Assembly: GCA_964480395.1 (NCBI GenBank)
Contig: CAYZQB010000007.1
Coordinates: 1-37,370, forward strand
Direction: 5' to 3'
Length of the DNA stretch: 37,370 bases
Origin: an uncultured Planctomycetia bacterium
GTDB taxonomy: Bacteria > Planctomycetota > UBA8742 > SKZP01 > CAYZQB01
Part shown: one piece after another, positions 2,258-33,969 of the stretch
Position numbering within the stretch: the first letter of the stretch is position 1
Layout of the letters: each line of letters begins with the position of its first letter
Notes under the pieces: model-generated
Databases searched by the model: none
Told to the model about the DNA's origin: nothing
Seen by the model: only the letters and a program-made list of their open reading frames with translations
Program-made: the position numbers and the translations under genes

Positions 2258-2298
2258 TCGACATCGTCAATAGGTCAAATTGTATTTGTGTCCATTTT
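2258..2298 (+). promoter_or_regulatory. Copy 1 of conserved bipartite element (TCGACATC-gt-CAATAGGTC-N13-GTCCATTTT), upstream of the ABC ATPase gene
   Basis: The exact 11-mer GTCAATAGGTC at 2266-2276 is identical to 21566-21576 and 28534-28544. GTCC follows after the same 13-nt spacer as in the copies at 21566 and 5705. The TCGACATC-NN prefix is shared with the copy upstream of the sigma gene. Confidence 0.5.
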
Positions 2299-16807: not shown

Positions 16808-19800
16808 TTACTTGCCAAAGCAGGTTAACGAGTTCGATTCGACGTATAAATTGTCTTTGATCACCAAAACTTTAGGCATTCTTGTGTCCTGTTCCAATGG
16901 ATCATATTGCAGATATTGCAAAATTTCTCCACTCGCTTTATCGACAATGCACATCTTTGCGTTCCATTGCCTTGAATAAGAGCTCTGATTCGTATTAGTC
17001 ATCATTTTTTCGTGAACAGCAACAATGTATTTTTGCGTAATGAGAAGTTCGATGTTTTCACTCATTTCTCTTTTGAGTTCCAATAGTTGTTTCTGCCATA
17101 ATTGCTTTCCTGTAGAACTGTTATACGCTTCGATTATATACTTATTATCACGTGTTCTATAGAATGTGTACAATCGATCGTTATCAAGTACATAATCTGG
17201 ATACGAATACACATTTTTTAGCAGGATAACCCATTTTTGCTCAAATGTTTCAGGATCTAACCCAATATATCCGCTGTTTATAACGCCTGAGACATATATT
17301 TTATCATTTGCTTGTTGGCTGCTCCATGTTGCGTGATCCAGTGTTTTTACCTTCTTGATATTACCAGTTTTCAGGTCGTATATTCTTAACTGATTATTGC
17401 GCAGAAGCAATGTGATGTTATTGTCACCTGCCAATACGATATAATAATGCTTCAAACGTTGCGTCAGTGTGATTTCGTATTTCGGCACATCAGTGTTTTC
17501 GGTGTCGAAAGCGATAATTGATTCGGGATAACTGCTTGAGGGTTTATCAACGTAAAGCAAAAGTGTCTTATCGAAAAATTGTATGTCTTTTACAGAGTCA
17601 ATCCTGTTGAATCTATACTGAGTTATAATCCTGCCGTCATCAATATTACAAAAGAATACAGTATAAATTCTTTCACCGCTATTTTCGCTGATTTTTCCAC
17701 CAATCAACGCAATAATACCATCTCCTATCGCTGCCTGGTCAATAGAGTAGTTGAACATGCGTGTCCAGTTGGAATTACCGTTTGCGGGATTGATATTGTA
17801 TATACCAGATGTAGTTATTATTATTAATGTGTTGTTTATGTAAAACGATTTAACAGCAGTATTTTGCACATTGGCGGTCCAGCGTTCAATGCCATTTAAA
17901 GTATTAAGGCATTGAAGAAGTCCGAGACTGTGTATGACATATGTATTTTCGCTATATTTCTCAGGTATTGTGCCTTCGATAAGCAGAAGTTTCGGAAAAG
18001 TTTTATTGCTGAATGATTTCTGGAATCTTTGCTTGAGAGGTGGTTCTGCCAATCTCGGTATAATTTTATGTATTTTAAGACCTTTGAATTTCTCAAGGGC
18101 AAGCTGCTCTTTCACGAATTCATCAATTTCAATTTCCATTGTGCCATATTTGATTTTCTGACCCTTGAATTCTTTTGCAATGTCGAGAAGAAGATTGCGT
18201 GCAGAGAACAGTATCTCGTTATTTGTGTAAATGTAGTAGAGTCGAAGCATCAATTCAGCACGTTTGTCTGAAATCTTGAATTTAACCATAAATTCTTGAA
18301 TTATTATCATTGCATCGTGCAATTGTTCTTGGCGGATGTAGAGCATTGACAACTCATAATACGCTTTCTCACAAACCAAGCTGTTTGGATAACTGTCAAT
18401 AAGTGTCTCAAGTGTTTCACTTGAAGCTGTTGAAACTCCAGATTTAAGTAGTATTTCGGCTTTTGCATCCCATGTTTCAAAGATTTTACGCGTATTTTCG
18501 GAGATTAATTTATCTATTCTCTCAATAGAATAATCGTAGAGTGATTTACCAAGGTAGTTGATATCAGGTTTATACAGTATAATCTTCTGCCAGTAATTGA
18601 CTGCTTTCAGTGGATTATTAATTTGTTCCGCAAACAATGCGCCTTCAAGTGCAGTGTAAATCTTGACCGACATCTCACCTGAAGGAAAATCGTGGACATA
18701 ATCTGGATATTTCGACATCAGATCATCTAAAAGCCGGAAAACATCATCTCTTTTTAATTTTGCATTTGGGGAAGCTGCAAGTTTTTGTGTTGATTTTATA
18801 TCAATCAGCATAATCCTGATGTATTCGTCCTTTGTTTGTGAATATTGCTTTGCAATGCTGATATATGCGGTTAATTCCCTTAACTTACCCTCAAGATAAA
18901 GTTCCTGAGCCCGTTCATAATATATGCTGAAAAGGGTTCTATTCGACTGAATAACAATTTGGTTGAAGGTACTTTTCTTGTTTTTTTCGTATTCAGCCAA
19001 AATCTTTTTGAAATACACAATCGCATCGTCGGTTTTATTGTTTTCAAGAAGCAGCATGCCTATACGATATTTAATTTCCAGGTCATTCGGGAATGTTCTC
19101 TCGAGGTTAATTAATAGGTCAAACAAATCCTTTCGATCGTAAGCAACTGCGATATTGCTTGAATTAACAGCAATAAGCGTGTTTTCAGCACTAATTAAGT
19201 TGCCACCCATACTCGAAATTTCGATAATCGACGCTGAATAGTCGTTATTTCCGCTAACTTTCACGACTTTCATTATATTCAAGTCGACATGTAGAATTGA
19301 TGTTCGGGTGGGAATCAAGCACAGATTCCCCATGATTACTGGTTTCCCTGATGCCTTGTAGTCATTAATGCGTGATTCTTCGTATAAATCAAGCGCATTT
19401 GTAAGCTTCCCTGACTCAATATCAACAGTAAACAAGTATTTTGATCCACCGAAAAGCACTTTGTCATTATAGACACCAATTAAATATCTGCTGCTTGAAT
19501 CATAAGGATTGTATCGATAATTCCAGAGAAGTTTTCCACTTTCGATGTCATAGCAGTAAACTTTGGATGAATCAAGAGGAGTAACGACAACTTTGCCCTT
19601 GTAAATGATTGGTGGTCGGTTGAACCATGTCAAACGTCTGAAATTCGGAGTATAGGATTTCGTCGAAATGTATGGAATTTTCTCGTAAGGCTGAGCCCAA
19701 ATTCTTTCACCAGTATCAGCATCAAATGCACTTATCAGATCGACATTTGTGCAGGCGATAATCTTGTTGTCCATGTATGCCAAACCTTGAGGAATTGGCT

Positions 19801-21349
19801 CTCGGATCGGGCTTCCAAACATGTTAATTTCCTGCTGACCCGTAGCAATTTTCGCAATCCAATTCAATTTTGCATTGCCAGTGCGTTTGCCGTCCTGAAA
19901 TTCTCCGTTAATATCGAAGGCAAGCAGGAAAAAATGGGCATTCGCAGTTAATGTACATCCAATTACATACGCTGTCGCATCAACAATTGTGGGTGCAATC
20001 GGATAAGATAAGATTTCGTGCAAAGGCAGACTGTCATCCCATTTTGCACCAACTCGCCATTTAATATCACCATTGTGCTTGTCAAAGCAGATAAGCTCTC
20101 GTTTAGTGGGAGTTATTATCGCAGGACCAGTGTAAGGAAGTCTGTAAGTGCTGCTTTCAAGCAAATAGTTTGGTACATAACTCTCAATCGGAGCATAAAC
20201 ATTATTATTATCACAGGAAACGGTGTAAATAACCGCGGAATCAATGCGCGGAATCCAGGAATAACCATTCTCTATCCTATTGCTGAAAGCCCATTTCTTT
20301 ACACCTGAATACAGATTGTATGCAGTCAGATTATTGCGATAAGGCACGTAAACTGTGGCATCCGAAACAGAAGGGAAAATCCTTTTTAAATTGCCTTCAT
20401 AATAAATATAATTCAATCCGTTGTAAGGTTCTTTTGGTCCAACTGTCGCTTGCGGGTGCGTTTCTGACCATCTGAATTCATCAGGATCTGTTATCGCTTG
20501 AACAATTTTATTGTTTGAAGCATTTCCACCATCTTTGTTGTAAATCTCAGAATAATTCGGTGATTTTATTCTTTTTCGAGTTTCAGTCAGTTTACTTTCG
20601 ACATAGCTAGGCAAATCAACAAAATTATGACCGAGTTTGAATCTCGCTTCAGGCAGGTTTTTTCGCAAGTAGGCAAGCAGTTTTTCGAGTTCGTAATCCC
20701 ATAAAAGCTTCTCAAAACAGAATGCAAGCTGGGCTACAAGTGATGTTTTTCCTGCGATATCAATGTTATATTGATATAGTAATTTTGACATTATCGAAGT
20801 TGCTTCTGGCAGTCTGTTTTGCTCAATCAGAATCCGTGACGCCTGTACTGCACCATTTAATGCAGAATCCGTGTAAGGATACGTCCTGATAACATCTTTC
20901 AATATATCAATATTTTTATTGAAAATAGCATTTTGAATCCTGCTCTCAGCTATTTTTTCATAGCGGCTTTTATATAAATCGAGAATTTCATCACTTCGGT
21001 TTTCGAGTATTTTTCTGACATAAACACGTGCACCCTGATATATTTTTTCTGTCTGGTTATAAACAACATCGTCGCGATATTTCTGTTGAGTCAAAATCTC
21101 CTGCAGTCTCGTCAGCCCTTCGATTCTATCGTTTAAAGCGGAATCTTTGTCTGAAGTTCTGTTTGCACGATCTAAAAAGTTGATTGCTTTAGCAATATAT
21201 TCTTTAGTATTCGGGTTCTCAATTTGCACACCTTCTTCGACGAATTCTTCTTCCTCATTCTCTTTATCTTCCTGTGATGTCAGGTTATTCTGCAAAAACA
21301 TGAGCATAAAAATTAATGTAATGAATAACAAATTTCTTCTGAGATTCAT
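16808..21349 (-). CDS. Giant secreted PQQ-like (BamB-like) beta-propeller repeat protein with central TPR/helical-repeat region
   Basis: Many G-x-x-x-W propeller blades (GDIKWRV, GERIWAQ, GKLLWNY, GIERWTA, GNSNWTR, GKQLWQK). A long helical middle section has TPR-like segments. The start is chosen at 21349 (MNLRRNLLFITLIFMLMFLQ signal peptide, GGAG about 6 nt upstream), although the ORF is open to 21406. Confidence 0.8.
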   Translation of the reverse strand: MNLRRNLLFITLIFMLMFLQNNLTSQEDKENEEEEFVEEGVQIENPNTKEYIAKAINFLDRANRTSDKDSALNDRIEGLTRLQEILTQQKYRDDVVYNQTEKIYQGARVYVRKILENRSDEILDLYKSRYEKIAESRIQNAIFNKNIDILKDVIRTYPYTDSALNGAVQASRILIEQNRLPEATSIMSKLLYQYNIDIAGKTSLVAQLAFCFEKLLWDYELEKLLAYLRKNLPEARFKLGHNFVDLPSYVESKLTETRKRIKSPNYSEIYNKDGGNASNNKIVQAITDPDEFRWSETHPQATVGPKEPYNGLNYIYYEGNLKRIFPSVSDATVYVPYRNNLTAYNLYSGVKKWAFSNRIENGYSWIPRIDSAVIYTVSCDNNNVYAPIESYVPNYLLESSTYRLPYTGPAIITPTKRELICFDKHNGDIKWRVGAKWDDSLPLHEILSYPIAPTIVDATAYVIGCTLTANAHFFLLAFDINGEFQDGKRTGNAKLNWIAKIATGQQEINMFGSPIREPIPQGLAYMDNKIIACTNVDLISAFDADTGERIWAQPYEKIPYISTKSYTPNFRRLTWFNRPPIIYKGKVVVTPLDSSKVYCYDIESGKLLWNYRYNPYDSSSRYLIGVYNDKVLFGGSKYLFTVDIESGKLTNALDLYEESRINDYKASGKPVIMGNLCLIPTRTSILHVDLNIMKVVKVSGNNDYSASIIEISSMGGNLISAENTLIAVNSSNIAVAYDRKDLFDLLINLERTFPNDLEIKYRIGMLLLENNKTDDAIVYFKKILAEYEKNKKSTFNQIVIQSNRTLFSIYYERAQELYLEGKLRELTAYISIAKQYSQTKDEYIRIMLIDIKSTQKLAASPNAKLKRDDVFRLLDDLMSKYPDYVHDFPSGEMSVKIYTALEGALFAEQINNPLKAVNYWQKIILYKPDINYLGKSLYDYSIERIDKLISENTRKIFETWDAKAEILLKSGVSTASSETLETLIDSYPNSLVCEKAYYELSMLYIRQEQLHDAMIIIQEFMVKFKISDKRAELMLRLYYIYTNNEILFSARNLLLDIAKEFKGQKIKYGTMEIEIDEFVKEQLALEKFKGLKIHKIIPRLAEPPLKQRFQKSFSNKTFPKLLLIEGTIPEKYSENTYVIHSLGLLQCLNTLNGIERWTANVQNTAVKSFYINNTLIIITTSGIYNINPANGNSNWTRMFNYSIDQAAIGDGIIALIGGKISENSGERIYTVFFCNIDDGRIITQYRFNRIDSVKDIQFFDKTLLLYVDKPSSSYPESIIAFDTENTDVPKYEITLTQRLKHYYIVLAGDNNITLLLRNNQLRIYDLKTGNIKKVKTLDHATWSSQQANDKIYVSGVINSGYIGLDPETFEQKWVILLKNVYSYPDYVLDNDRLYTFYRTRDNKYIIEAYNSSTGKQLWQKQLLELKREMSENIELLITQKYIVAVHEKMMTNTNQSSYSRQWNAKMCIVDKASGEILQYLQYDPLEQDTRMPKVLVIKDNLYVESNSLTCFGK

Positions 21350-21565
21350 TTTTTCTCCGTGTTTGTATTCATGATATTTTAACGTATTATTCAAGCAAAA
21401 ATTCACCTAATTATTAATACTATAAAATTGAAACAATGTTTATTAATCAGTTCGCATTATTTAATACAAATTACGTTGATTAAATGCGAAAAAACCTTTG
21501 AAATTACGATGATTTGAAGGTATAAGTCTCCTTTCTTGTATCAGAGATGCATTTTATGCAATATG

Positions 21566-21598
21566 GTCAATAGGTCGAAGAACTCTTGAGTCCTGTTG
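21566..21598 (+). promoter_or_regulatory. Copy 2 of the bipartite element (GTCAATAGGTC-N13-GTCCTGTTG), 57 nt upstream of the EF-G paralog start
   Basis: Exact 11-mer at 21566-21576 and GTCCTGTTG at 21590-21598. The segment CTTGAGTCCT is shared with the sigma-gene copy. Confidence 0.5.
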
Positions 21599-21654
21599 AG
21601 GATAATGAGAGAAGAGCCTAAAATACTGTGGATTTTGGTAATACGGAGGTCATA

Positions 21655-23757
21655 ATGTCGATTCAGGATTTGAGGAATGTCGCATTTGTTGGACATGGTA
21701 ACTCAGGAAAAACTGCAACTGTGGAAGGATTGCTCTACACTGCGAAAGCTATTTCACGTTGGGGAAGAAGTGATGACAAGACTTCAATACTCGATTATCT
21801 TGATGACGAAAAAGATAAAGCTTATTCTATAAATCTTAAGATCGGTCGCCTGAAGCACAACAAGGTTGACATAAATGTAATTGATACTCCTGGCAAGCCG
21901 GATTTCCTTGGTGAAGCGGTTTCAGCATTGTATGCGTGCGATACAGCGGTTATTACAATCGCAGCTAATGCGGGTATTCAGGTTAATACTCGAAATGCTT
22001 GGAAAATCTCGGAAAAAGCTAATGTTGCAAAGGCAATTCTCATTACAAAAACCGATGCTGAAAACATCAGAGTCGAGGATGTGATTAAGCAGATTCAGAA
22101 TACCTTTGGCGACAAGTGCATCCCAATAACGTACCCAATCGGTGAAAGTGTGGATATGGTGGATGTAATCGATGTAATCAATCTACCTGAAAACGCGCCT
22201 GATGCTGCTGTGTCCTACAGAGAAACACTTGTTGAGAGATCAGTTGAAGCAGACGATGAAATAATGGAAAAATTCCTTGAAGAAATGGAAATCGATGAAG
22301 CAACTTTCAACAAGGTTTTGAAAAAAGCAATCACAATGGGTGTTGTTGTTCCGATTCTTTTTGTCGGAATGACAAAAGAAAAAGGTTATGACATTCTGCT
22401 TGATAAAATTGTCGAGCTTTTTCCGTCACCAGCAGATAATCTAGCGAAATTCAGCATATATCCTCTAGAACCAATGAAAGAATATATTAAAGCCAACGAA
22501 CTGGATATATTCAGCACTGTCATCACTGAAAAAACTGACATTCAAAAGCCAGAGCCAGAAACTATCGAATCTGCTGATGGTGATTTCCTTGCACAGGTCT
22601 TCAAATCAACAATTGACCCACAAACCGGAATACGAAACAGTTTTATCAGAGTTGTTCGCGGTGAAATGACAAGTGATGGTGCAATATACAACTGTTCAAC
22701 CGAAAAAATTGAAAAAGTAACGGGTTTCCTACATATCAGCGGTAAAGATACAAAAAGAATTGATAAAGCTGTTGCAGGCGATATTGTGGTTATCTCAAAA
22801 ATGGATTCCTTACATACTTGCACAACGATAACCGGTACGAACCATAAGATGCTGGAAGGATTTCCCTTTCCTCTTCCAACTGCTTCATTTGCTGTTCATC
22901 CGAAAACTCAAAAAGACGTTGATAAAGTCGGTGAAGCAATATCAAGAATTCGCGCGGAAGACCCAACTTTCGTTGACAGGATAGATCCAGTTACAAAAGA
23001 GCGAGTTATTGTCGGTCTCACTGACCTTCACTTGAATATTATGCTTGACCGCATGAAAAAACGCTCAAAAGTTGAAGTCGAGACAAGCTTACCCATAATT
23101 CCGTATAAAGAAACTATAACCGGTAAAGCTGCTGACAGCTATCGGCATAAGAAGCAGTCGGGTGGTGCTGGCGAATTCGGCGAGGTTCATATAGAAATCA
23201 GTCCGAGTGAACGTGGTGCCGGCTTTGAGTTCGAAAACGCAATTTTCGGTGGTTCAATTGACAGAGTTTTCATTCCTTCAGTTGAAAAAGGATTGAAAGA
23301 TCAGATGGCAAAAGGAGTTATTGTCGGTTTTCCTGTTGTTGATGTTCATGCACGACTATATGACGGGAAGACACATCCTGTTGACAGCAAGGACAGGGCA
23401 TTTCAGGTTGCTGCTCGCGAATGCTTCAAGAAGATTTTTCCGCATGCAAAACCAAAGCTTCTAGAGCCATATATGGAAATGGAAGTTCATATTCCAACTG
23501 AAAAAGTCGGCGACATTCTTGCGGACATCTCCGGTGCTCGCAGAGGGCGCGTTAACGATCAGATTACTGATGGTGATTTTGCAACAATTATGGCAGTTGC
23601 ACCACTTTCGGAGATTCAAACTTACAGCCAGAGTCTTCAGTCGATGACAGGCGGTGAAGGAACATTTACGATGAAATTTAGCAACTATGAAATAGTGCCT
23701 GAGAATATAACACAACAGATAATTGCAAAATATGCAAAAAAAGTTGAAGAAAAATAA
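21655..23757 (+). CDS. Elongation factor G paralog (EF-G-like translational GTPase)
   Basis: G1 is GHGNSGKT, G3 is DTPGKPDF and G4 is TKTD. The domain IV tip context is YDGKTHPVDSKDRAFQVAA. About 700 aa. Start ATG 21655 has GGAGG 5 nt upstream; the ORF is open from GTG 21628. Confidence 0.88.
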   Translation: MSIQDLRNVAFVGHGNSGKTATVEGLLYTAKAISRWGRSDDKTSILDYLDDEKDKAYSINLKIGRLKHNKVDINVIDTPGKPDFLGEAVSALYACDTAVITIAANAGIQVNTRNAWKISEKANVAKAILITKTDAENIRVEDVIKQIQNTFGDKCIPITYPIGESVDMVDVIDVINLPENAPDAAVSYRETLVERSVEADDEIMEKFLEEMEIDEATFNKVLKKAITMGVVVPILFVGMTKEKGYDILLDKIVELFPSPADNLAKFSIYPLEPMKEYIKANELDIFSTVITEKTDIQKPEPETIESADGDFLAQVFKSTIDPQTGIRNSFIRVVRGEMTSDGAIYNCSTEKIEKVTGFLHISGKDTKRIDKAVAGDIVVISKMDSLHTCTTITGTNHKMLEGFPFPLPTASFAVHPKTQKDVDKVGEAISRIRAEDPTFVDRIDPVTKERVIVGLTDLHLNIMLDRMKKRSKVEVETSLPIIPYKETITGKAADSYRHKKQSGGAGEFGEVHIEISPSERGAGFEFENAIFGGSIDRVFIPSVEKGLKDQMAKGVIVGFPVVDVHARLYDGKTHPVDSKDRAFQVAARECFKKIFPHAKPKLLEPYMEMEVHIPTEKVGDILADISGARRGRVNDQITDGDFATIMAVAPLSEIQTYSQSLQSMTGGEGTFTMKFSNYEIVPENITQQIIAKYAKKVEEK

Positions 23758-23861: not shown

Positions 23862-25910
23862 ATGGATAAAAAATTATTACAATTTATGACAGCAATTACG
23901 CTACGGAGAATCAGTCAGCTCAAGTATCGCAGTGTGATAAATGCACCAGATACAAATGATAATAATATAATCAGTATTTACGAAATAGCCGGTGAATTAT
24001 GTGAGGATTTTAAGGATGTTATCCTGCAGGAAGCACGGGAACTCGCTCAAACCAGTGCTGAAGACAAAAATCTTTCACCTGAAAAAATTGCTTTGATGCT
24101 CGCTGAGGCAATTCCACTTTATGCTGGCTACAACGACATAAAGGATAATTTTCCTGACAATTCGGAGATTACTAGAAAAGTACTGAGTATCAAAGTCGGT
24201 CATCCTGCTGATAAATCCGACTATTATTTCGCAATCATTCGGGATAATGCGAATAAAGACCCATTTGTACCCGTCGAAGAACGTATGTTGACGAAGCCAC
24301 TTGAATCAGATCTGAGTGATTTGTACGAGAAAGTTTATATTGATGCGAAAGCATTGATAAATCAGCTTAATATTTCGAATTTTAATCAAATTTTGACTCA
24401 ACTCATAGAAATGCTTATGCCAATTCCGATTAACTCCGGAACTGATACTTTTCTCTCGATGGGGAGTTATTTCCGTGCTGTTCTAATTATCGGTTGCTCG
24501 ATTTTAAACGAGATAAAATCGCATGGACCCGGAGTGATGCAATCCGATGAAAGTAATTTATGGGCGTTAACCAAGATTGAAATCGTAAAACTTGGCATTA
24601 ATGGAAACTTGCCGGGTAGTATTATAGAAGAATCCAGGGAATTTCAGGTTTTAAGGAAAGAATTATTCGATGCGATGAAAACAGATACCCTGATTATTGA
24701 AAACCACGAACTTAAATCAACACTACCGAATCATATCTACCTGCTTCACAATAAATCTTTTAGTGAAGAATTGACTCGGAAAATTAAACCTGCAGTAACA
24801 CATTGGTTTGCTCAAAATCGTGCTGCTACATGCGTTGCAAGCGTAGAATTAAACAAAAATGACCTTTCTGATACTAAAAAATTTGAAGAATGCCTGAAAA
24901 AAGTGGATTTGAAAGCACATCATGAAATTGTGCACAAAATTGCCTTAAATTCTTTTTCTCAACCCGTGAAAGAAAAATCTAATGCGGAAAATCTTAAGAA
25001 AACGAGTAAAATTAACCCGCCAGAACTTGTTCAAAAAGCAGCATCAGAAAGCAGAATACCGATCATGGGTATGCTTCTAATTAAACAGGAAACTCAGCCG
25101 GAGTTAATCATTAACCGTGGTGCTGGTTTGCCTTCAATTCTTTTCGCAAATGACAGATTCACTCATTTCTGGGAAAAAATTGTTCCTGATATCGCTGGGA
25201 AATACCGTTTTTCAACAAGTATGATACATCTTGAAAAGGGTGATGTATTAATTAAGAATAAATTGTCGAGACTTCTAAGTTTCACAAGGGAATTTTTCAA
25301 TCTATATTATGATTTTGGAATGCCTGTGAGCATCAGCGCAAGCATCACAATGAATCAAGAAGGAGATGATGGCAAGAACCTGTCAATGACACATCAAGGT
25401 TATGTGGATGCAAAAAACGCAGTTCGCCCAAAAATTAGGACAGATAACCAAAATATCAATCCTTTCAGCGGTTTCAAGGGCAGCATGCTTTCTCTTTGTT
25501 TATTTGAGAATACGTCAAAAAACACAATTCCGAGTGAAGACCTGAAAATATTCTTCGAAATGATGCGTCAAATTGGATTACTTGCGGGTTATAGAGTCAA
25601 TAATGAAGATATTGTCCCACTTTCTAGTCAGACCAAACCTGAAATATTCAATATAGTACACTCAATTACGAATAAAATAAAGAATGATAAAGGTTTCAAC
25701 TGGCAATCAGTTTTGTATTATATGCTAACAGAGAAATTTAGTGATGAAGCTGATGCAAAAACTATAAATCTCAACGAACAAGCTGTAAACGACCTTTTAC
25801 ATACCTTAAGATATAATCGATGGCAGAACATTCAAAGACTGATGTCAAAACCTGCTCATCTTTATCTGAATATTTTGGCAAAATGGTTGAAAGTATTAGA
25901 ATTAACTTAA
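23862..25910 (+). CDS. Large hypothetical protein in the Cas10 (type III large subunit) position; possibly a highly degenerate Cas10 lacking HD, zinc-finger and GGDD motifs
   Basis: It lies immediately 5' of a csm2-csm3-csm4-csm5-like series, with its stop 18 nt before the next start. Length is 682 aa. The only Cas10-like trace I see is MIHLEKGDVLI (aa 454-464) followed about 30 aa later by PVSISASITM. This resembles the Palm2 pattern hhY-GGDD-hhh ... T-h-S-A-G-h with GGDD degraded to EKGD. There is no N-terminal HD and no CxxC pairs. The C-terminal ~130 aa look helical. Confidence 0.4.
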   Translation: MDKKLLQFMTAITLRRISQLKYRSVINAPDTNDNNIISIYEIAGELCEDFKDVILQEARELAQTSAEDKNLSPEKIALMLAEAIPLYAGYNDIKDNFPDNSEITRKVLSIKVGHPADKSDYYFAIIRDNANKDPFVPVEERMLTKPLESDLSDLYEKVYIDAKALINQLNISNFNQILTQLIEMLMPIPINSGTDTFLSMGSYFRAVLIIGCSILNEIKSHGPGVMQSDESNLWALTKIEIVKLGINGNLPGSIIEESREFQVLRKELFDAMKTDTLIIENHELKSTLPNHIYLLHNKSFSEELTRKIKPAVTHWFAQNRAATCVASVELNKNDLSDTKKFEECLKKVDLKAHHEIVHKIALNSFSQPVKEKSNAENLKKTSKINPPELVQKAASESRIPIMGMLLIKQETQPELIINRGAGLPSILFANDRFTHFWEKIVPDIAGKYRFSTSMIHLEKGDVLIKNKLSRLLSFTREFFNLYYDFGMPVSISASITMNQEGDDGKNLSMTHQGYVDAKNAVRPKIRTDNQNINPFSGFKGSMLSLCLFENTSKNTIPSEDLKIFFEMMRQIGLLAGYRVNNEDIVPLSSQTKPEIFNIVHSITNKIKNDKGFNWQSVLYYMLTEKFSDEADAKTINLNEQAVNDLLHTLRYNRWQNIQRLMSKPAHLYLNILAKWLKVLELT

Positions 25911-25927
25911 CGAAACAAGGAGTATAT

Positions 25928-26854
25928 ATGTTTGCAGAAGAAATTAACGAAGATATGAAGGAAAGAAAAGATACTTCAGCTGAGGAGATAAAAGAAGAAC
26001 CTGAAACTATTGACGAAAATAAACCTGTAAAATCAGCGAAAAATACTGAAACTAATGCTGAAGACAAAGTTGAAGCATTAAATGATAAAGCTGATGCTGA
26101 TGTTGTTAAGGACGAAAAGCATGATGAAAAACCTGTTGACAACTCAAAATCAGTAAAATCAGAAAAAATTACTAAGGATAAAAAGGATAAATTACTAGTT
26201 GAGACAGAGATACAAAAAGAATTACAGGATATTAAAACCTCGAAAACTCAAAAGGATTCTATTAAAATTAAGGATTCTGCTCAGGAAGAATCTAAAGAAT
26301 CGATCCTTACTAAAAAGGAAATTAAACTTGATGAACCGCGTAAAAGCAAGACGGAATCAGGTAGGTTCGAGAAAAGAATAAGTGAGCGAAAAAGAATAGA
26401 CAGACGCGGACTTCGTCAGGGAATCAGACGTGAAGAATATCGTAATAAAAGCTATGATGCACTTCCTGCACGAGATCAGAACATTAAAGAGATAATAAGC
26501 TCTGGAAATCCCGATTTAATCAACAGAACCGCTGAAGATTACGCAAAAACATGGGGTGACAGACCACCGTGGATTAAAAACCGTTTTTCTTCATTCCAGA
26601 TACGACCGATTATTTCAAAAATCTTGAAAATCAGAAAAAAAACCTTCGCATACGAAAACGTAAACGAGCTGAAACTTCTGAAACCATTGTTAGCATATAT
26701 TGCACGCAGGTATCACGACGACGATCTTTATGAATTTTCGCGAATAATAAGATATGCGATTGATGATGTCGGAGACGACCCGCAAAAGTTCAAATATTTT
26801 TGCTCGTTCTTTGATTCTCTGCTTCTGTATTTCAGGGCTAACGGTGGTAAATAA
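25928..26854 (+). CDS. csm2: Csm2-type Cas11 small subunit with a ~180-aa Lys/Glu/Asp-rich N-terminal extension
   Basis: The C-terminal ~125 aa carry Csm2 family hallmarks as I recall them: SSFQIRPIISKILKI, ELKLLKPLLAYIARR and KFKYFCSFFDSLLLYFRANG. Start 25928 is preceded by AAGGAG (25917-25922). The N-terminal part is low-complexity charged sequence ending in an Arg-rich patch (RFEKRISERKRIDRRGLRQGIRREEYR). Confidence 0.75.
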   Translation: MFAEEINEDMKERKDTSAEEIKEEPETIDENKPVKSAKNTETNAEDKVEALNDKADADVVKDEKHDEKPVDNSKSVKSEKITKDKKDKLLVETEIQKELQDIKTSKTQKDSIKIKDSAQEESKESILTKKEIKLDEPRKSKTESGRFEKRISERKRIDRRGLRQGIRREEYRNKSYDALPARDQNIKEIISSGNPDLINRTAEDYAKTWGDRPPWIKNRFSSFQIRPIISKILKIRKKTFAYENVNELKLLKPLLAYIARRYHDDDLYEFSRIIRYAIDDVGDDPQKFKYFCSFFDSLLLYFRANGGK

Positions 26855-26885
26855 CATTAAATCCAAAACATAAGTGAGATTGATT

Positions 26886-27644
26886 ATGCAATTAGACAAA
26901 CGAATTTTCCTAAAAGGTTACATTATTGCTGAAACAGGTTTGTTAATCGGTGGAACTGACACAGGACAAGGACTGAGCGGAGCAGACAAGGTTGTTTTAC
27001 GCAATCCTATCGATGAAAGACCGTTTATCCCTGGTTCGTCCATAAAAGGCAAAATGAGAATGCTATTGGATCAGCTTGCTGGGATTTATTCTGAAACCGA
27101 TGAGAAAAAAACTGCCAGTGAGATTCACAAAAAGATCGCACGATTGCTTGGAAAAATCAGCGATGATAGAGCAGAAAGTCCCAGAATGCTTATTATCCGG
27201 GATGCTAATCTTGTGAACCACAAGTATCTTGAAGCACAAGAGCATCTTGATCTGCCTTACACTGAACTAAAAACCGAAGTTTCAATCGATAGAATCACCG
27301 CGAAAGCCACGCCACATTGCTATGAAAGAGTGCCTTCAGGAGCAGTATTTTGTTTCGAGATGATTTTAAGCACTTACGATTTCGGCAAATCCAAGGACGA
27401 TGCAAAACAATATGTCGAGTTGATATTAACTGCATTATTGCTTCTGCAGGACGATTATCTGGGAGCAAACGGCTCGCGCGGTTACGGTAAAGTAAGATTT
27501 CACGTGAATGATATAAAAATGCGCGACAAAGAAGGTTATATCAAGAATGCTGAGCCAATTGATTTCACTGAAGTCAACGTACCAGCTGAGCTGAAACTCG
27601 AACAACCGGTTCTTGATGAAATTAATTCGCAGATTTCTAAGTAA
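26886..27644 (+). CDS. csm3: Csm3-family RAMP (Cas7 backbone subunit)
   Basis: The N-terminal stretch is GLLIGGTDTGQGLSGADKVVLRNPIDERPFIPGSSIKGKMRMLL, which holds the G-rich loop, the catalytic-Asp context and the IPGSS-KG-R motif. The C-terminal motif is LGANGSRGYGKVRF. Confidence 0.88.
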   Translation: MQLDKRIFLKGYIIAETGLLIGGTDTGQGLSGADKVVLRNPIDERPFIPGSSIKGKMRMLLDQLAGIYSETDEKKTASEIHKKIARLLGKISDDRAESPRMLIIRDANLVNHKYLEAQEHLDLPYTELKTEVSIDRITAKATPHCYERVPSGAVFCFEMILSTYDFGKSKDDAKQYVELILTALLLLQDDYLGANGSRGYGKVRFHVNDIKMRDKEGYIKNAEPIDFTEVNVPAELKLEQPVLDEINSQISK

Positions 27645-27662
27645 AAACAATGAGGTTGACCG

Positions 27663-28517
27663 GTGAGTGATTACGATTTTATCGAATATAAATTGAGTTT
27701 TAAACAATCATTAAATCTGCCAATTTCTTCGTCAAACGAGATTTATCCTGTCTTATATTCCGACTGGTTGTATAAAGTGTTTGAAAGCGGATGGAAAAGA
27801 TTGTTTAGTGAGGATTTTCCGTACAATGACATCCGAATCACTTCCGGATTTCCATACTGCAAGGATTATTCACATGTTCTTTTCTATATACCGGAAAAAT
27901 TAGAATATTTGTCCGTTGCACGTGATGCACTTGCTGCTGGTGAGATTATACTTGGCTCAAATTGCTGGCGTTTTTTCTCGCGCCCTAGGGCAGAATTCAA
28001 CAAAGATACTGCACGCAGGGAAAAACGCTTTACAACAGTTGAAATATATTTCAAGAAAAATTCTGGAATCTGGTTTGGGTCGCGATTTACTAACTCGACA
28101 AGTCAGAAGAAATTCGAGAGTGTAATTCGGTTTATCGGTGATGAGGGCATCGGCGGCGGTCGTTCAGTAGGTTATGGCGGGTTTGTGCTTTCAAGCATCG
28201 AGGAAATATCAGTTTACAAAGAGGAACACTCTCTAATGCTTTCACTTTCACGCTTCAAAATACCCGAATCTTCAATTTCAGAAGACCTTTTTTGCGAAAT
28301 ACGACCGATGACAATTGGATTGAAATCTACAAAAACTGGAAAAAAGATTAATTTCTTGGTATTTGGCGAAGGCTCACTTATGAATGTGAGTGATAAAGTT
28401 GATTATTTATATGCTGGTGAATTTATCGGAGAAGACAGCAAAAAAGCAAAAGATTACTCGAATCGTGCAGCATTGCTTTTTGCTATGCCAGTACCAGCGA
28501 AATTGCAGACTTACTGA
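27663..28517 (+). CDS. csm4: Csm4-family RAMP (Cas5-like subunit)
   Basis: N-terminal YKLSFKQSLNLP...VLYSDWLYKVFESGW matches the Csm4 pattern (beta-strand, then sD-T-L-F-S-A-L-like helix). The C-terminal glycine-rich loop is IGDEGIGGGRSVGYGGF. GTG start has GAGG 8 nt upstream. Confidence 0.75.
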   Translation: MSDYDFIEYKLSFKQSLNLPISSSNEIYPVLYSDWLYKVFESGWKRLFSEDFPYNDIRITSGFPYCKDYSHVLFYIPEKLEYLSVARDALAAGEIILGSNCWRFFSRPRAEFNKDTARREKRFTTVEIYFKKNSGIWFGSRFTNSTSQKKFESVIRFIGDEGIGGGRSVGYGGFVLSSIEEISVYKEEHSLMLSLSRFKIPESSISEDLFCEIRPMTIGLKSTKTGKKINFLVFGEGSLMNVSDKVDYLYAGEFIGEDSKKAKDYSNRAALLFAMPVPAKLQTY

Positions 28518-28533
28518 CATTCTTTTCATGTTT

Positions 28534-28564
28534 GTCAATAGGTCAATCGATTTTGTTCCTATTG
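28534..28564 (+). promoter_or_regulatory. Copy 3 of the bipartite element (GTCAATAGGTC-N10-GTTCCTATTG) inside the csm4-csm5 intergenic gap
   Basis: Exact 11-mer at 28534-28544. CAATAGG (28536-28542) and CCTATTG (28558-28564) are perfect 7-bp inverted repeats. The spacer is 2 nt shorter than in the other copies. The element ends 60 nt upstream of the csm5 ATG. Confidence 0.5.
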
Positions 28565-28623
28565 CTTTGTTGAGGGAAAAAACAGGTTGCCGATGCAGAA
28601 TTTAGATTAATTAAGGTAATGTT

Positions 28624-29820
28624 ATGTTTACATATACAAAGAAATTGAAAAGTATAATCGAAGCGGAAGTTGAGGTACTAACACCTTTGCATATCAGCAG
28701 CGGGAAGAGTTTTCAACCTTCTGATGTTGTGCGTGATCCAGAATCATTTTTTGTTATTAACGAACGAAAACTTATTGAGAAATTTGCCGATAACGATGAA
28801 GTATTGAAAGAGCTTGAGAATCCACGCCTGATTTTGCAAAGATTCTTCGAAGAGCATGAAGATTTGTATGTTGATGATTATATGCTTTACGAACTTGAAG
28901 CACGGACGCAGAAAACAGTGCGTTATGGCATGCCATTAAACAGTTTCGCTCGCATAGGAGCTGAGTTTACGCCCTACATTCCTGGCTCATCTCTGAAAGG
29001 AGCTCTTCTTTCAGGTATTTTGTGGGATTTGAACCAGATAGCAAGAGGAGATAGCGAGAAATGGACCAGCGATATTTTTGTGTCTGCTCTTAAGAGGTGT
29101 TTTCATCACGGTAATGACATAAATATTTACGATAATGAATTTATAAGTGCAATTTTAGGTAAAGATAGCACAAATTTTGCTCAAAAAGCGTTCCGTATTC
29201 TGGATGCTAGTTTGAAACCTGAAGATATTGGTGTTTTCGCAAATGCAATGTTTCATTGTGATAAACCAAACGGCAGCGGATATCATTGGAGTGGAATTCA
29301 GAAACTGCCAACGAATGATTTTACGAAGATAAGCTATGAATTAATTGAAGCAATAAAGCCTGGAACAAAATTCAATGTTAAGATAGTTGTTGACAATGTT
29401 GCTCTTAAAAATGTTAAATTCGGGGAATTAAGCTCGAAACTTAGGCATGGTAAATCCTACGAATTTGGTGATATTGCAAGTGCCATATTCGAGTTAGCTT
29501 ATAACACTCTTTATTATGAAAAAGAATTTTATAGCAAGACAGGTCATCGAAAACTTATTAATGCATCAGAAGATTTTTATAATTATGCAAACTCAATTGC
29601 AGAAGATCCGGAAAGCAACGAGATTATGCTCCGTCTTGGATGGGGTATGAACTATCACGGAGTGACTGGTTTTTTATGGCAGGACGATATTGTGAAAAAA
29701 CTGAGATTACCTATGCAAAATTATCATGAATATCCTTACCCGAAAAGCAGGCGGATTGTATTTGATGGTCAGAACGAAGTAGGTACACCAGGCTGGGTTA
29801 AAATGCGCATCAATTTTTAA
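28624..29820 (+). CDS. csm5: Csm5-family RAMP (Cas7-like capping subunit)
   Basis: VEVLTPLHISSGKSFQPSDVV near the N-terminus, YIPGSSLKGALLSG, and RLGWGMNYHGVTG near the C-terminus; 398 aa. Confidence 0.8.
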   Translation: MFTYTKKLKSIIEAEVEVLTPLHISSGKSFQPSDVVRDPESFFVINERKLIEKFADNDEVLKELENPRLILQRFFEEHEDLYVDDYMLYELEARTQKTVRYGMPLNSFARIGAEFTPYIPGSSLKGALLSGILWDLNQIARGDSEKWTSDIFVSALKRCFHHGNDINIYDNEFISAILGKDSTNFAQKAFRILDASLKPEDIGVFANAMFHCDKPNGSGYHWSGIQKLPTNDFTKISYELIEAIKPGTKFNVKIVVDNVALKNVKFGELSSKLRHGKSYEFGDIASAIFELAYNTLYYEKEFYSKTGHRKLINASEDFYNYANSIAEDPESNEIMLRLGWGMNYHGVTGFLWQDDIVKKLRLPMQNYHEYPYPKSRRIVFDGQNEVGTPGWVKMRINF

Positions 29821-31838: not shown

Positions 31839-31917
31839 CGGGGCGTAGCGCAGTCTGGTTTAGCGCGTCTGAATGGGGTTCAGAAGGTCGAAGGTTCGAA
31901 TCCTTTCGCCCCGACCA
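31839..31917 (+). tRNA. tRNA-Pro (anticodon GGG), CCA encoded
   Basis: Manual cloverleaf. The acceptor CGGGGCG pairs with CGCCCCG, giving the C1:G72 pair plus A73 typical of bacterial tRNA-Pro. The D stem is GCGC/GCGC. The anticodon stem is TCTGA/TCAGA with loop A-T-GGG-G-T. The T arm is GAAGG-TTCGAAT-CCTTT. Confidence 0.9.
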
Positions 31918-31927
31918 CAAAACACAA

Positions 31928-31960
31928 CAACTCAAGAGTTTTTCCTCTTGAGTTGTTTTT
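31928..31960 (+). terminator. Rho-independent terminator after tRNA-Pro
   Basis: CAACTCAAGAG (31928-31938) pairs with CTCTTGAGTTG (31945-31955), an 11-bp stem with a 6-nt loop, followed by T5. Confidence 0.88.
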
Positions 31961-32176
31961 ATTGGTTACAACCTGAATTACAACCCGTTGGAACGGATTT
32001 GAATCATTCTAAAATGAAAGATGCAGCAATTTCAATGCTTGCAGCGCGCACCATCTCGCAGCTTCTTGATATACAATGAAATAAGATTAACTAAGTGTGT
32101 ATATGTATAGATATGATGTACTAAAAAAGTACATTGTGATTTAGGAACAGTTTTACGTCAGAAATATTTACATTTT

Positions 32177-32233
32177 ACAGAAATAACAGAAATAACAGAA
32201 ATTATCGAGAATAACAGAATTAATAGAAATAAA
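32177..32233. repeat. 9-bp tandem repeat (ACAGAAATA: two perfect copies, a third with one mismatch, about three degenerate) in an AT-rich 520-bp intergenic region
   Basis: The sequence reads acagaaata acagaaata acagaaatt atcgagaat aacagaatt aatagaaat. Confidence 0.8.
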
Positions 32234-32484
32234 CGTACAAAGAAGGTTTGAAGACAGTAATATATACAGTTCAATAATAATGAGTTAGCCAAATACTGAA
32301 TTCAAGCTAATTATGTGCGATTGGATTTGCTATAAATATGAAATATTGAAAATATTAATCAAAAATCTTGAACTTTTTTCTGAAAAGCAGGTTTATCACA
32401 TATGTAACAATTCGATTTAAATATTATCTCATTATTTTTTATATTTCAGATATATTGTGATTTTGTTATTGAAATATAATTGGT

Positions 32485-33969
32485 CTATTTTTTTGCTGTT
32501 TCAATTGCCTTCATCAGCTTTTTCAAAATAAATATTAATGTTCTAAAATATTCCGCAAGTTCAACAAATTCCTTCAGCTCTGCATTATTTAAAGGATTGC
32601 TCTGTGATCGATTAAACAACGCAAGATACCTATCTTTTTTGTCTGCATTTTCATTTTCTAATTCTTTTACTAACTCAATAAGATTCATGCGCATTTTGCT
32701 AGAGTCAAAAGGTTTATTGAGAATTCCAGCCAGTTTTTTCTGCAGCTCAATAATAACGACCTTTTCAGGTGGCATCATTTTTTTAAGCTTTTTCCATGTT
32801 TTGTGCAAAAATCTCGCAGAAATATCCAGTGTTTTCGTATCTGCAATGTGCTTTTTAAGTTCTTCTGTGATATCTAAATCAGAAAATCCAAGTAAAGCAT
32901 TGAATTTCTTAAACTCCGATTCAAGATAATTATTCCTTGATTTCATATCATCGAATTTTTTAATTTCATCTTCAAATTCATCTAACCTTGGAATTAAGAT
33001 TGCATTTTCCTGCAGCGTCAATTCAAGTCGCTTCTTATGATCAGTAAATTTTTTAAAAAGTGCCTTCAAATCTGCAACAGCTTCATTATACTCTTTTACA
33101 AGCCGTTCCTTCTCTGACTTCCAATTTTCGAATGAGCCGTACATATGGATAAACTGCCCTAAATCGGCAACCATTGCTTTTTGGTCGTCTGTCAATTCCG
33201 TGTCGGGTTGCAATTCACCAGCATCAAACAAAATTTTAGCACCAACTTTGATAAAACTTCGAAACTGATGCACCGTTTCAATCTCGAAACTTGGTAGCGT
33301 ATTCTCCTCTATCACCTCGCGCCACAAAGATTCGTTCGCACCATCAAAATCAATTGTGTTTTTTAATTTCTCATTTTCCATAGCATCTGAATCTGGGGAT
33401 TCAGCATATGCTTCGACATAAGTTTCCGACAAATCGGTTTTCAGTTTATCATTTTCAGATTCGTTTGATTGCAACTCGGTAGTTATTGTTTCGATTGCGT
33501 TCGAGTCATTAGGAACTGGTTCATCTGTTACATGCACTTTATCGATCGTATAATCAGTTATGGACTCGACAAGATCTGACTCGACAGGATCTGGTTCATC
33601 TGTTACTTGCACTTTATCGATCGTATAATCAGTTACGGACTCGACAAGATCTGACTCGACAGGGTCTGGTTCATCAGTTACCTGCTCTTTATTGATCGTA
33701 TAATCAGTTACGGATTCGACAGGTTCAAACTCGACAGCTTCCGGCACATCGGCTTCTTGTTTGTTAACAATTGGTTCAAAAGTTACTGATTCGACAACTA
33801 CAGACTCATCGGCATCCGAATCGATAGATTCCGGTTCGTCATTATCCGAATCAACAACTTCCGGTACAATGGCTTCTGACTCGTCTTCGTCTTGCTCGAT
33901 AGCCTCTGGCACGAGAATTTCCTGTTCATCATTCTTGTTTTCAAAATCTTCATAATATGTTGAAGACAT
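32485..33969 (-). CDS. Hypothetical protein: highly acidic repeat-containing N-terminal half, coiled-coil C-terminal half
   Basis: 494-aa ORF. The N-terminus is rich in D/E/V/P with three 25-aa tandem repeats (VESVTDYTIDKVQVTDEPDPVESDL). The C-terminal half is heptad-like and K/E-rich. No family is recognised. Confidence 0.65.
   Translation of the reverse strand: MSSTYYEDFENKNDEQEILVPEAIEQDEDESEAIVPEVVDSDNDEPESIDSDADESVVVESVTFEPIVNKQEADVPEAVEFEPVESVTDYTINKEQVTDEPDPVESDLVESVTDYTIDKVQVTDEPDPVESDLVESITDYTIDKVHVTDEPVPNDSNAIETITTELQSNESENDKLKTDLSETYVEAYAESPDSDAMENEKLKNTIDFDGANESLWREVIEENTLPSFEIETVHQFRSFIKVGAKILFDAGELQPDTELTDDQKAMVADLGQFIHMYGSFENWKSEKERLVKEYNEAVADLKALFKKFTDHKKRLELTLQENAILIPRLDEFEDEIKKFDDMKSRNNYLESEFKKFNALLGFSDLDITEELKKHIADTKTLDISARFLHKTWKKLKKMMPPEKVVIIELQKKLAGILNKPFDSSKMRMNLIELVKELENENADKKDRYLALFNRSQSNPLNNAELKEFVELAEYFRTLIFILKKLMKAIETAKK
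33516..33740. repeat. 75-bp tandem repeat x3 within the acidic protein gene (in frame, 25 aa each)
   Basis: Units start at 33516, 33591 and 33666 (CTGGTTCATC...). Units 1 and 2 differ at only a few positions; unit 3 is more diverged. Confidence 0.9.

Follow-up and report, generated by a model that had tools for sequence, protein, structure and literature searches.

A type III-A-like (Csm) operon in a housekeeping setting of a planctomycete contig, with a diverged Cas10-like subunit that apparently lacks both Cas10 catalytic activities

Type III-A (Csm) modules of CRISPR systems, as known from S. thermophilus, S. epidermidis and T. thermophilus, are encoded in the order cas10-csm2-csm3-csm4-csm5. 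The same order, matches to the same Csm2-Csm5 models and the same Csm3 Asp were found in an operon at positions 23862-29820 of a 37,370-nucleotide (nt) stretch of DNA from an uncultured Planctomycetia bacterium, the whole of which is referred to here as the window. The operon consists of five tightly packed open reading frames (ORFs), all in the same direction on the + strand, with a gene termed ORF1 in the cas10 position followed by csm2, csm3, csm4 and csm5. ORF1 appears to keep the domain order of a type III-A Cas10, but whereas Cas10 is recognisable in those systems, ORF1 is unrecognisable by sequence and is devoid of the HD, zinc-finger, DxD and GGDD motifs; the column of the HD nuclease, a domain present in ∼65% of III-A, is replaced. 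The locus further differs in that no array, cas6, cas1/2 or Csm6/CARF gene was found in the 37 kb, in its housekeeping neighbours and in the length of Csm2, which at 308 amino acids (aa) is about twice that in six canonical loci (124-158 aa). The best reading is that the operon descends from and works like a type III-A module; it is given somewhat better than an even chance of being a reduced type III-A derivative which only binds and cleaves RNA and to which the guide is supplied in trans.

Reductive type III systems with a dead or unrecognisable Cas10 have already been described, namely III-C, III-G, III-H as well as III-I. Cyclase domains are near-ubiquitous in III-A (PMC11229360), so that it is unusual for a module of III-A type to carry a Cas10 that is doubly dead; the ∼3% of Cas10s without both domains (calculated from the figures of PMC11229360) belong mainly to III-C. 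Type III-C is Cmr-like, with the cyclase inactivated, without a recognisable HD domain in about half of the cases and with no known ancillary effectors, and is usually array-less (PMC11229360; PMC12669027). The present locus resembles III-C in the absence of a Cas10 cyclase site, of ancillary effectors and of an array, which is usually absent in III-C; it differs in having Csm-type instead of Cmr-type subunits, and in that Cas10 profiles still find the Cas10 of III-C but fail here. In III-G as in III-H the Palm is inactivated, the HD domain is apparently active and the Cas7 catalytic Asp is lost; III-G is array-less, thought to use CRISPR RNAs (crRNAs) in trans and Sulfolobales-specific, and III-H is mostly archaeal (Makarova et al., 2025; PMC12669027). 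Both are like the present locus in being reductive, with the Palm inactivated, the ancillary genes of cyclic-oligoadenylate (cOA) signalling lost and no adaptation module. They are, however, predicted DNA cleavers, while the reverse holds here, the HD domain being lost and the Cas7 Asp kept, as in a predicted RNA cleaver; neither the Csx26 of III-G nor the Cas11 fused in the Cas10 C-terminus of III-H is present, and Csm2 is a separate gene.

Type III-I combines Cas7-11i with an extremely diverged Cas10 known by structure only, and III-E has Cas7-11e and no Cas10 (PMC12669027). The Cas10 of III-I is, like ORF1, without detectable sequence similarity, and in both types the output, predicted or known, is RNA cleavage by the Cas7 Asp with no cOA. 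Their effectors are fused multi-Cas7 proteins from III-D, whereas Csm3, Csm4 and Csm5 are separate and III-A-like here, and the Cas10 of III-I is without the N-terminal Palm whereas ORF1 retains both Palm-like units. The III-Bv system of Synechocystis is reportedly a type III system without its own cas6 in which the crRNA is matured by host RNase E; unlike this locus, it is said to have an array and a recognisable Cmr2/Cas10. The Synechocystis III-Dv Cas10 was considered as a doubly dead parallel and was rejected because it retains GGDD (PMC11026444). The 'hypothetical' cas10-slot proteins of plasmid-borne III-A loci in Fulvitalea and Deinococcus were likewise rejected as analogues, since both keep GGDD: that of Fulvitalea axinellae pFA8 (contig L014, 4066-5526) has 486 aa and the motif FSGGDDCFF, and that of Deinococcus aquaticus pDATS03 (contig L015, 3529-5496) has 655 aa and the motif YSGGDDAVV. 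Both are read as short Cas10s overlooked by the annotation pipeline.

The features of the operon, in coordinates of the window, are as follows.

ORF1, 23862..25910, + strand: large-subunit gene, Cas10/Csm1-like, 682 aa; N-terminal helical region followed by Palm1-like, Palm2-like and helical D4-like domains.
csm2, 25928..26854, + strand: Cas11 small subunit, 308 aa; PF03750, TIGR01870 and PADLOC Csm2.
csm3, 26886..27644, + strand: Cas7 backbone RNase; TIGR02582.
csm4, 27663..28517, + strand: Cas5-type subunit, 284 aa; TIGR01903 and five PADLOC Csm4 models.
csm4-csm5 gap, 28518..28623, + strand: lineage-specific insertion of ∼95 nt, the gap in relatives being 9 nt.
csm5, 28624..29820, + strand: Cas7-like cap subunit, 398 aa; TIGR01899 and PADLOC Csm5.

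Csm2-Csm5 all exceed the curated NCBIfam cut-offs of the III-A equivalog models, in line with the identities assigned to them in an earlier note on this DNA; the five co-directional, tightly spaced ORFs of that note are present and every peptide string quoted in it was found in the translations. Csm2 was matched by PF03750 (46.7 bits, cut-off 24.8, E = 6.5e-12; residues 253-343 of a 344-aa reading) and by TIGR01870 (38.9 bits, cut-off 30.6), Csm3 by TIGR02582 (177 bits, cut-off 90, E = 3.5e-52) and Csm5 by TIGR01899 (65.8 bits, cut-off 38.3, E = 4.7e-18) and the PADLOC Csm5 model (E = 9.4e-19). The match of Csm4 to TIGR01903 (62.5 bits, cut-off 55, E = 4e-17) is confined to residues 103-244, so that its N-terminal third is divergent; the Csm4 family has four members in a set of 5.8e9 proteins and the GTG start of csm4 is kept in relatives. 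A failure to place 26886-29820 in the Csm3, Csm4 and Csm5 families, the outcome that the earlier note had named as contrary to it, did not occur, TIGR02582, TIGR01903 and TIGR01899 all matching there.

The start of csm2 is probably ATG 25928, 17 nt past the ORF1 stop, which agrees with the MFAD/MFAEE starts of Csm2 homologues; the alternative ATG 25820, which gives the 344-aa reading, overlaps ORF1 by 91 nt. That of csm3 is probably ATG 26886 and not GTG 26874. In the alignment of Csm3 with its S. thermophilus counterpart (PDB entry 6ifn_F, E = 1.1e-32), D38, numbered on the 256-aa reading that starts at GTG 26874, pairs with D33, the RNase catalytic residue of the S. thermophilus protein. The catalytic Asp of Csm3 is thus retained. 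The additional length of Csm2 lies in an N-terminal extension of ∼215 aa (window 25928-26570) ahead of the Csm2 domain. It comprises ∼140 aa of K/E/D-rich low complexity, variable in sequence and length among lineages, and a conserved Arg-rich stretch, RFEKRISERKRIDRRGLRQGIRREEYRNK, directly before the Csm2 domain, and it occurs in all four lineages with sequence (the window, lineages A and B described below and contig L017). RNA binding and partner binding are possible roles of this tail; as a Csm complex has several Csm2 copies, the particle would bear several such tails.

Searches of Pfam, NCBIfam and PADLOC gave no match to ORF1 at E < 0.05, and among PDB sequences there was no relevant one. 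Its family is tiny, with about five relatives across sets of 5.8e9 and 1.84e9 proteins: a word-indexed search of the former returned three members and a profile search (HMMER) of the latter, which consists of representatives, returned three matches, one full-length and two shorter and partial. The family profile, run over the 1.84e9 proteins, gave no bridge to any Cas10. Cas10/Csm1 proteins of annotated III-A loci were expanded to 126 sequences, and the resulting Cas10 profile was compared by hhalign with that of the ORF1 family. This gave two hits, one of ORF1 1-360 to Cas10 12-373 (HD region and Palm1; score 41.0, P = 3.4e-4) and one of ORF1 426-672 to Cas10 568-785 (Palm2 and C-terminal helical domain; score 37.0, P = 1.2e-3); they are co-linear and run nearly end to end on both proteins. 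The 61 null comparisons gave 16.4 for the reversed alignment, at most 25.1 for 30 column shuffles and at most 27.1 for 30 block shuffles. Only the deep profile gave these hits, the comparison with a shallow six-sequence Cas10 alignment being not significant (P = 0.15).

AlphaFold models of ORF1 were built without templates from ORF1-family sequences alone. The full-length model had a predicted local distance difference test (pLDDT) score of 37 and is unusable as a structure; that of residues 395-682 had a mean pLDDT of 49.8, with values of 57-78 only in the Palm2-like unit. Residues 395-500 were modelled as a clean beta-alpha-beta-beta-alpha-beta unit, and the predicted units of this type coincide with the aligned Palm1 and Palm2 positions. 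When the C-terminal model was compared with 350,542 PDB chains using Foldseek, the top three matches (6xn7_A, 9g9c_A and 9asi_A) were Csm1 chains; class III nucleotidyl cyclases and Cmr2 (4doz) ranked next. With the full-length model, the top five (6ifu_A, 9g9g_A, 6ifl_A, 9asi_A and 4doz) were Csm1/Cmr2 chains, aligned over 573-678 columns. Operon position, profile-profile co-linearity and fold matches converge on ORF1 being a Cas10 derivative, which is considered highly probable. The profile and structure searches to which the earlier note had looked for an assignment of all five proteins thus succeeded in part: profiles placed Csm2-Csm5, but for ORF1, with no Cas10 model match, only hhalign (scores of 41.0 and 37.0, nulls not above 27.1) and Foldseek pointed to Cas10, with weak statistics and low-confidence models.

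Neither an HD dipeptide nor CxxC, GGDD or even a GG dipeptide occurs anywhere in ORF1, the first three as had been stated before, and the protein has a single conserved Cys and no Cys pairs. The catalytic columns were read from the merged ORF1/Cas10 alignment using true residue numbers. The metal-binding DxD of Palm2, 100% conserved in the Cas10 set, is replaced by K408/E410, which are invariant in four lineages. GGDD is replaced by E458-K459-G460-D461 (EKGD), with EKGE, GLGE and DYCE in relatives, none of which is among the GGDD variants of active cyclases listed by Hoikkala et al. (PMC11229360). The Palm1 motifs GDxSGIQ, RGRSF and GGG are replaced as well, and the Cas10 HD column corresponds to L14-R15. 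The structural anchors G403, F436/W437, S492 (of 'ISAS'), A517-K518 and Y620 are kept, and the replacement of catalytic residues while such anchors are conserved was counted in favour of a dead Cas10 homologue. At the level of sequence, both Cas10 catalytic centres are lost, as the earlier note had supposed from the missing motifs. With the ORF1 motifs gone and D38 of Csm3 kept, Csm3-mediated RNA cleavage is the only canonical enzymatic activity possible; the complex would probably be limited to RNA binding and cutting, and the earlier suggestion that nothing else is retained follows naturally.

In the mechanism proposed, the five proteins would assemble on a guide RNA into a Csm-like ribonucleoprotein. 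The Cas10-derived ORF1 would be a scaffold alone, with no HD nuclease, no zinc finger and both Palm sites destroyed; Csm4 would hold the guide 5' end, Csm3 would form the backbone with an intact RNase site, Csm5 would be the cap and several Csm2 copies would each carry a long disordered, partly Arg-rich tail. The guide would be an RNA of ∼30-45 nt made elsewhere, most likely a crRNA that originates from the CRISPR array of a different system of the genome and is matured by the Cas6 of that system or by a host RNase. The complex would pair with complementary transcripts, which Csm3 would cut at 6-nt intervals, with neither cOA signalling nor DNase output. Complex assembly, RNA cleavage and the guide source are the parts of this scheme that we infer; a distant array would be the most likely source, and array-less type III loci are commonly served in this way (PMC12669027).

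The surroundings of the operon were screened for the parts of a complete system. Tandem Repeats Finder and a direct-repeat search found no CRISPR array in the 37,370 nt, only the tandem repeats of 9 and 75 bp that had been seen by eye before, and neither an array nor cas6 lies within the 23.9 kb upstream or the 7.5 kb downstream of the operon. None of the other window ORFs matched a cas (cas6, cas1/2), CARF, SAVED or Csm6/Csx1 model in PADLOC, NCBIfam or Pfam, again in agreement with the earlier reading, and none matched a model of any further defence system. As array-less, adaptation-less type III loci using crRNAs in trans are common (PMC12669027; see also PMC5576922), this state is by itself unremarkable, and the absence of a CARF/SAVED/Csm6 gene fits the reported link between cyclase loss and loss of ancillary effectors (PMC12669027).

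Several points weigh against a cleavage-only type III-A derivative guided in trans. The hhalign probabilities were just 38% and 20%, and ORF1 as a single sequence scored 21.7 and 20.2 with the Cas10 profile while other window proteins reached 27.5, although both single-sequence hits nonetheless fell on Palm1 and Palm2. The Foldseek E-values were weak (2e-3 to 4e-3) and came from models with a mean pLDDT of 37-50. The strongly conserved ORF1 motifs GPGVMQSD, NPFSGFKGS, IPSEDLKIFFEM and TLRYNRWQNI could indicate a new activity instead of a pure scaffold, and the Csm2 extension has no counterpart in the six Csm2 proteins of canonical loci that were compared. The 37-kb contig showed no guide RNA, no array and no cas6. 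Csm3 RNA cleavage alone adds little to immunity in the III-A systems that have been studied, so that a defence role for a cleavage-only complex is not obvious.

The order of an EF-G paralog, ORF1, csm2, csm3, csm4 and csm5, with adk and rsgA following on the opposite strand, recurs in two related lineages, as assembled from short contigs and not from one continuous piece. Lineage A is a metagenome-assembled genome labelled 'Planctomycetes bacterium' (GCA_021106775.1; contigs L001 and L003), the proteins of which are 76% (ORF1), 80% (Csm4), 88% (Csm3) and 88% (Csm5) identical to those of the window; in lineage B (ERZ27271442; contigs L002 and L006) the identity is 49-50% for ORF1 and 55% for Csm4. 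Parts of the arrangement are present on three more contigs (L007, L008 and L017), and the invariant blocks of ORF1 persist across lineages just 43-50% identical overall. The ratio of nonsynonymous to synonymous substitution rates (dN/dS) was calculated by the Nei-Gojobori method between the window and lineage A, giving 0.125 for ORF1, 0.21 for Csm2, 0.065 for Csm3, 0.105 for Csm4 and 0.042 for Csm5, with 0.05 for the EF-G paralog and 0.06 each for Adk and RsgA. For the five genes of the csm operon dS was ∼1.0-1.5; adk/rsgA gave 1.3-1.6 and the EF-G paralog 0.83.

Purifying selection on all five genes and a dS like that of the flanks show the module to be functional and inherited vertically with its neighbours; it is not a recent island, nor is it a remnant in decay. 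The dN of ORF1, Csm4 and Csm2 is 0.32-0.43 against 0.14 for the flanks, corresponding to an approximately threefold faster protein evolution; cas genes typically evolve fast at the protein level. The conserved location suggests domestication but is no proof of it, because the lineages compared are fairly close (EF-G ∼91% and Adk 82-86% identical). Judged from these comparisons the operon seems to be a stable chromosomal resident of a small clade: the block is conserved at the same locus with the same order and housekeeping neighbours in its relatives, and the word 'resident', used of it before, is justified.

A further sequence related to ORF1 was found on L016, a 1.2-kb contig with 2.7x coverage. 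Directly 3' of the C-terminus of an EF-G paralog, this contig encodes a 190-aa protein (355-927, protein P0005) in which an N-terminal module resembling that of ORF1 (residues 10-119, E = 6.7e-28 with the ORF1 profile; compare window 23862-24200) is joined to a tRNA-binding domain of the MetRS-C/Trbp111 type (TIGR00399, E = 1.5e-21; PF01588). The protein reflects either a chimeric assembly or a true rearrangement or domain shuffle in one lineage.

The best-placed alternative, though not a likely one, is an exapted non-defence ribonucleoprotein, i.e. a dead-Cas10 Csm complex guided by a host non-CRISPR RNA or a stand-alone repeat-like RNA and acting, perhaps in connection with translation, for example in RNA processing or in the silencing of transcripts. 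That CRISPR-Cas is exapted for roles outside defence is an acknowledged trend (PMC12669027), and the non-CRISPR guide is somewhat favoured by the housekeeping setting and by the fact that no immune output is left. Both Cas10 outputs and all ancillary and adaptation genes are gone, the array is absent from the contig and the operon occupies a stable site between housekeeping genes in related lineages with a dS like that of the flanks; such synteny is, however, usual for ordinary cas loci too at EF-G and Adk identities of ∼91% and 82-86%. The dN/dS of Csm3 and Csm5 is as low as that of adk/rsgA, but ORF1, Csm4 and Csm2 change at roughly three times the rate of the flanks, as cas genes typically do. 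The Arg-rich, intrinsically disordered tail of Csm2 is conserved in four lineages. The neighbours encode ribosome-associated GTPases (the EF-G family protein and RsgA), gene neighbourhood on its own being weak evidence. Neither the non-coding DNA beside the operon nor Rfam yielded a candidate guide RNA, and the one element that is repeated shows no significant fold.

It is unlikely that ORF1, while nuclease- and cyclase-dead, has been neofunctionalised, so that target-RNA binding would trigger an output other than cOA or DNase through its invariant motifs or through recruitment by the Csm2 tails. By analogy, Cas7-11 recruits the Csx29 protease and a Cas10 remnant docks Cas14 in type VII. The invariant blocks of ORF1 are unrelated to Cas10 motifs and span lineages 43-50% identical, but they may be mere interfaces with Csm4, Csm2 or RNA; the dN/dS of 0.125 is lower than expected of a mere spacer protein. 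Cas10 remnants are known as docking modules (PMC12669027), yet no library detected an enzymatic domain in ORF1, and apart from the upstream EF-G family gene the operon has no conserved gene that could encode a partner.

Distinctly unlikely is an array-free, domesticated housekeeping RNA-guided RNase of a planctomycete-like clade, which would silence or process cellular transcripts with a host non-CRISPR RNA; the dead Cas10 and the Arg-rich, disordered Csm2 tails would then be new platforms for interaction, perhaps with a coupling to the ribosome-associated GTPases encoded next to them.

An origin of ORF1 outside Cas10, by displacement of cas10 at the operon head by an unrelated protein, is very unlikely. 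It would account for the lack of HMMER-level similarity to Cas10, even with the family profile over 1.84e9 proteins, for the single sequence being within noise against the Cas10 profile and for the low-confidence AlphaFold models, and P0005, in which the N-terminal module of ORF1 is joined to a tRNA-binding domain, hints at modularity. It does not agree with two co-linear, end-to-end hits well over all nulls, with beta-alpha-beta-beta-alpha-beta units exactly at the Palm1/Palm2 alignment, with Csm1 chains leading the Foldseek matches of two separate models or with the conserved anchors G403, F436/W437, S492, A517-K518 and Y620. A decaying, functionless remnant of a type III-A locus would explain the loss of the array and cas6, of the genes for adaptation and ancillary functions and of the Cas10 motifs, but is effectively refuted by five intact ORFs in several lineages with dN/dS of 0.04-0.21 at dS of at least 1.

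If the preferred reading of a reduced type III-A derivative is confirmed, the operon would represent a lineage derived from III-A that has gone to the extreme of reductive evolution, having kept the RNase site and the several-subunit make-up of Csm and discarded all Cas10 activities, ancillary signalling, adaptation and its own array; the locus would fill a gap among the described reduced type III variants. It is predicted to encode a natural RNA-cleavage-only Csm complex without collateral outputs, and is well suited to asking whether effectors of class 1 can be retained for non-defence roles. Annotation pipelines that rely on Cas10 profiles overlook loci of this kind, as the labelling of ORF1 and Csm4 in a relative as 'hypothetical protein' illustrates.

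A guide-RNA gene beside the operon was sought by comparison between lineages, and no conserved non-coding element was found: the EF-G/ORF1 spacers are not conserved among lineages and the csm5/adk spacers are lineage-specific terminators or insertions. Rfam at E ≤ 1 gave only a tRNA over the window. Scans of genome contigs with the ORF1 alignment and with Csm3 returned no matches, nor did scans of metagenome contigs with the ORF1 alignment and a 20-nt element. In lineage A, the csm5-adk spacer (L003 2937-3136) is 200 nt long, compared with 39 nt in the window, and contains inverted repeats of ∼17-20 nt (GTCATTCTGAGGCATCA ... TGATGCTCATTCAGAATGAC), which suggest a small insertion resembling a miniature inverted-repeat transposable element.

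The window contains a dispersed intergenic element with the invariant core GTCAATAGGTC, a flanking similarity of ∼60-80 nt and the consensus ..ACATyGTCAATAGGTCAAAT-N5-6-TTGnnTCC..GAGAAAAA. Copies of the core were found at the following positions.

Window 2266-2276, + strand: GTCAATAGGTC copy.
Window 21566-21576, + strand: GTCAATAGGTC copy.
Window 28534-28544, + strand: GTCAATAGGTC copy in the 106-nt csm4-csm5 gap.
Contig L016 133-143: GTCAATAGGTC copy.
Contig L016 233-243: GTCAATAGGTC copy.

The orientation is always that of the downstream gene (ABC ATPase, EF-G paralog, csm5 and the ORF1 homologue of L016). Counting the 11-mer with at most one mismatch, three copies occur in the window against 0.73 expected, and six of 100 shuffles reached three. 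The element was rejected as a structured RNA, as the window copies fold no better than shuffles (z = -0.07); it has no Rfam match, and JGI metagenomes contained no exact copy. A promoter/operator or a small mobile element is its probable nature, and the csm4-csm5 insertion is possibly an internal promoter/operator or a small mobile element.

The genes flanking the operon include those for an EF-G family GTPase, adk, rsgA, tRNA-Pro, metK, an ECF (extracytoplasmic function) sigma factor and an ABC ATPase, and the GC content is level throughout the window at 0.35-0.40; the housekeeping flanks and even base composition had been remarked on before. The nearest upstream gene is given for context only.

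EF-G family GTPase, 21628..23757, + strand: match to NF009381 (694 bits).

It lies upstream of ORF1 on the same strand, 104 nt apart, and the terminator scan predicted no terminator-like site in the gap. Scans of the window for promoters and terminators gave sites no more numerous than in shuffled sequence. An EF-G family gene is found 5' of the ORF1 homologue in L001, L002 and L016 too. The window gene may be either that for the main EF-G of the cell or a paralog. The protein has an atypical G1 motif, GHGNSGKT (in the context VGHGNSGKT), and its start may be ATG 21655 (MSIQDL...), which is preceded by GAGG; a sigma-70-like TTGAGG-17-TAAAAT at 21596-21624 lies just 3' of one copy of the GTCAATAGGTC element.

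Some further features of the window were noted. Two very large proteins encoded on either side of the region, at 16808-21406 and 34327-37370, are unrelated to the operon. The 1532-aa protein encoded at 16808-21406 (- strand) combines a PQQ/BamB-like beta-propeller with TPR/YbgF-like repeats. The stretch 34327-37370 seemed to be poor in ORFs; this was rejected for 34-37 kb, as it is one long ORF on the + strand extending past the window end, the protein of more than 1014 aa having an N-terminal TPR/YbgF-like region. A very acidic protein of 494 aa without a family match is encoded at 32485-33969 (- strand); the 75-bp repeats (33436-33810) are coding and correspond to 25-aa tandem units ...VESVTDYTIDKVQVTDEPDPVESDL... 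in this protein. The tRNA-Pro at 31839-31917 is the sole Rfam/ARAGORN match in the window. It is followed by an unusually long convergent spacer of 567 nt (31918-32484), which is AT-rich (GC ∼0.28), has no Rfam match and contains a terminator-like inverted repeat at 31917-31966, a second inverted repeat at 32332-32455 and six copies of the 9-bp unit ACAGAAATA at 32177-32232.

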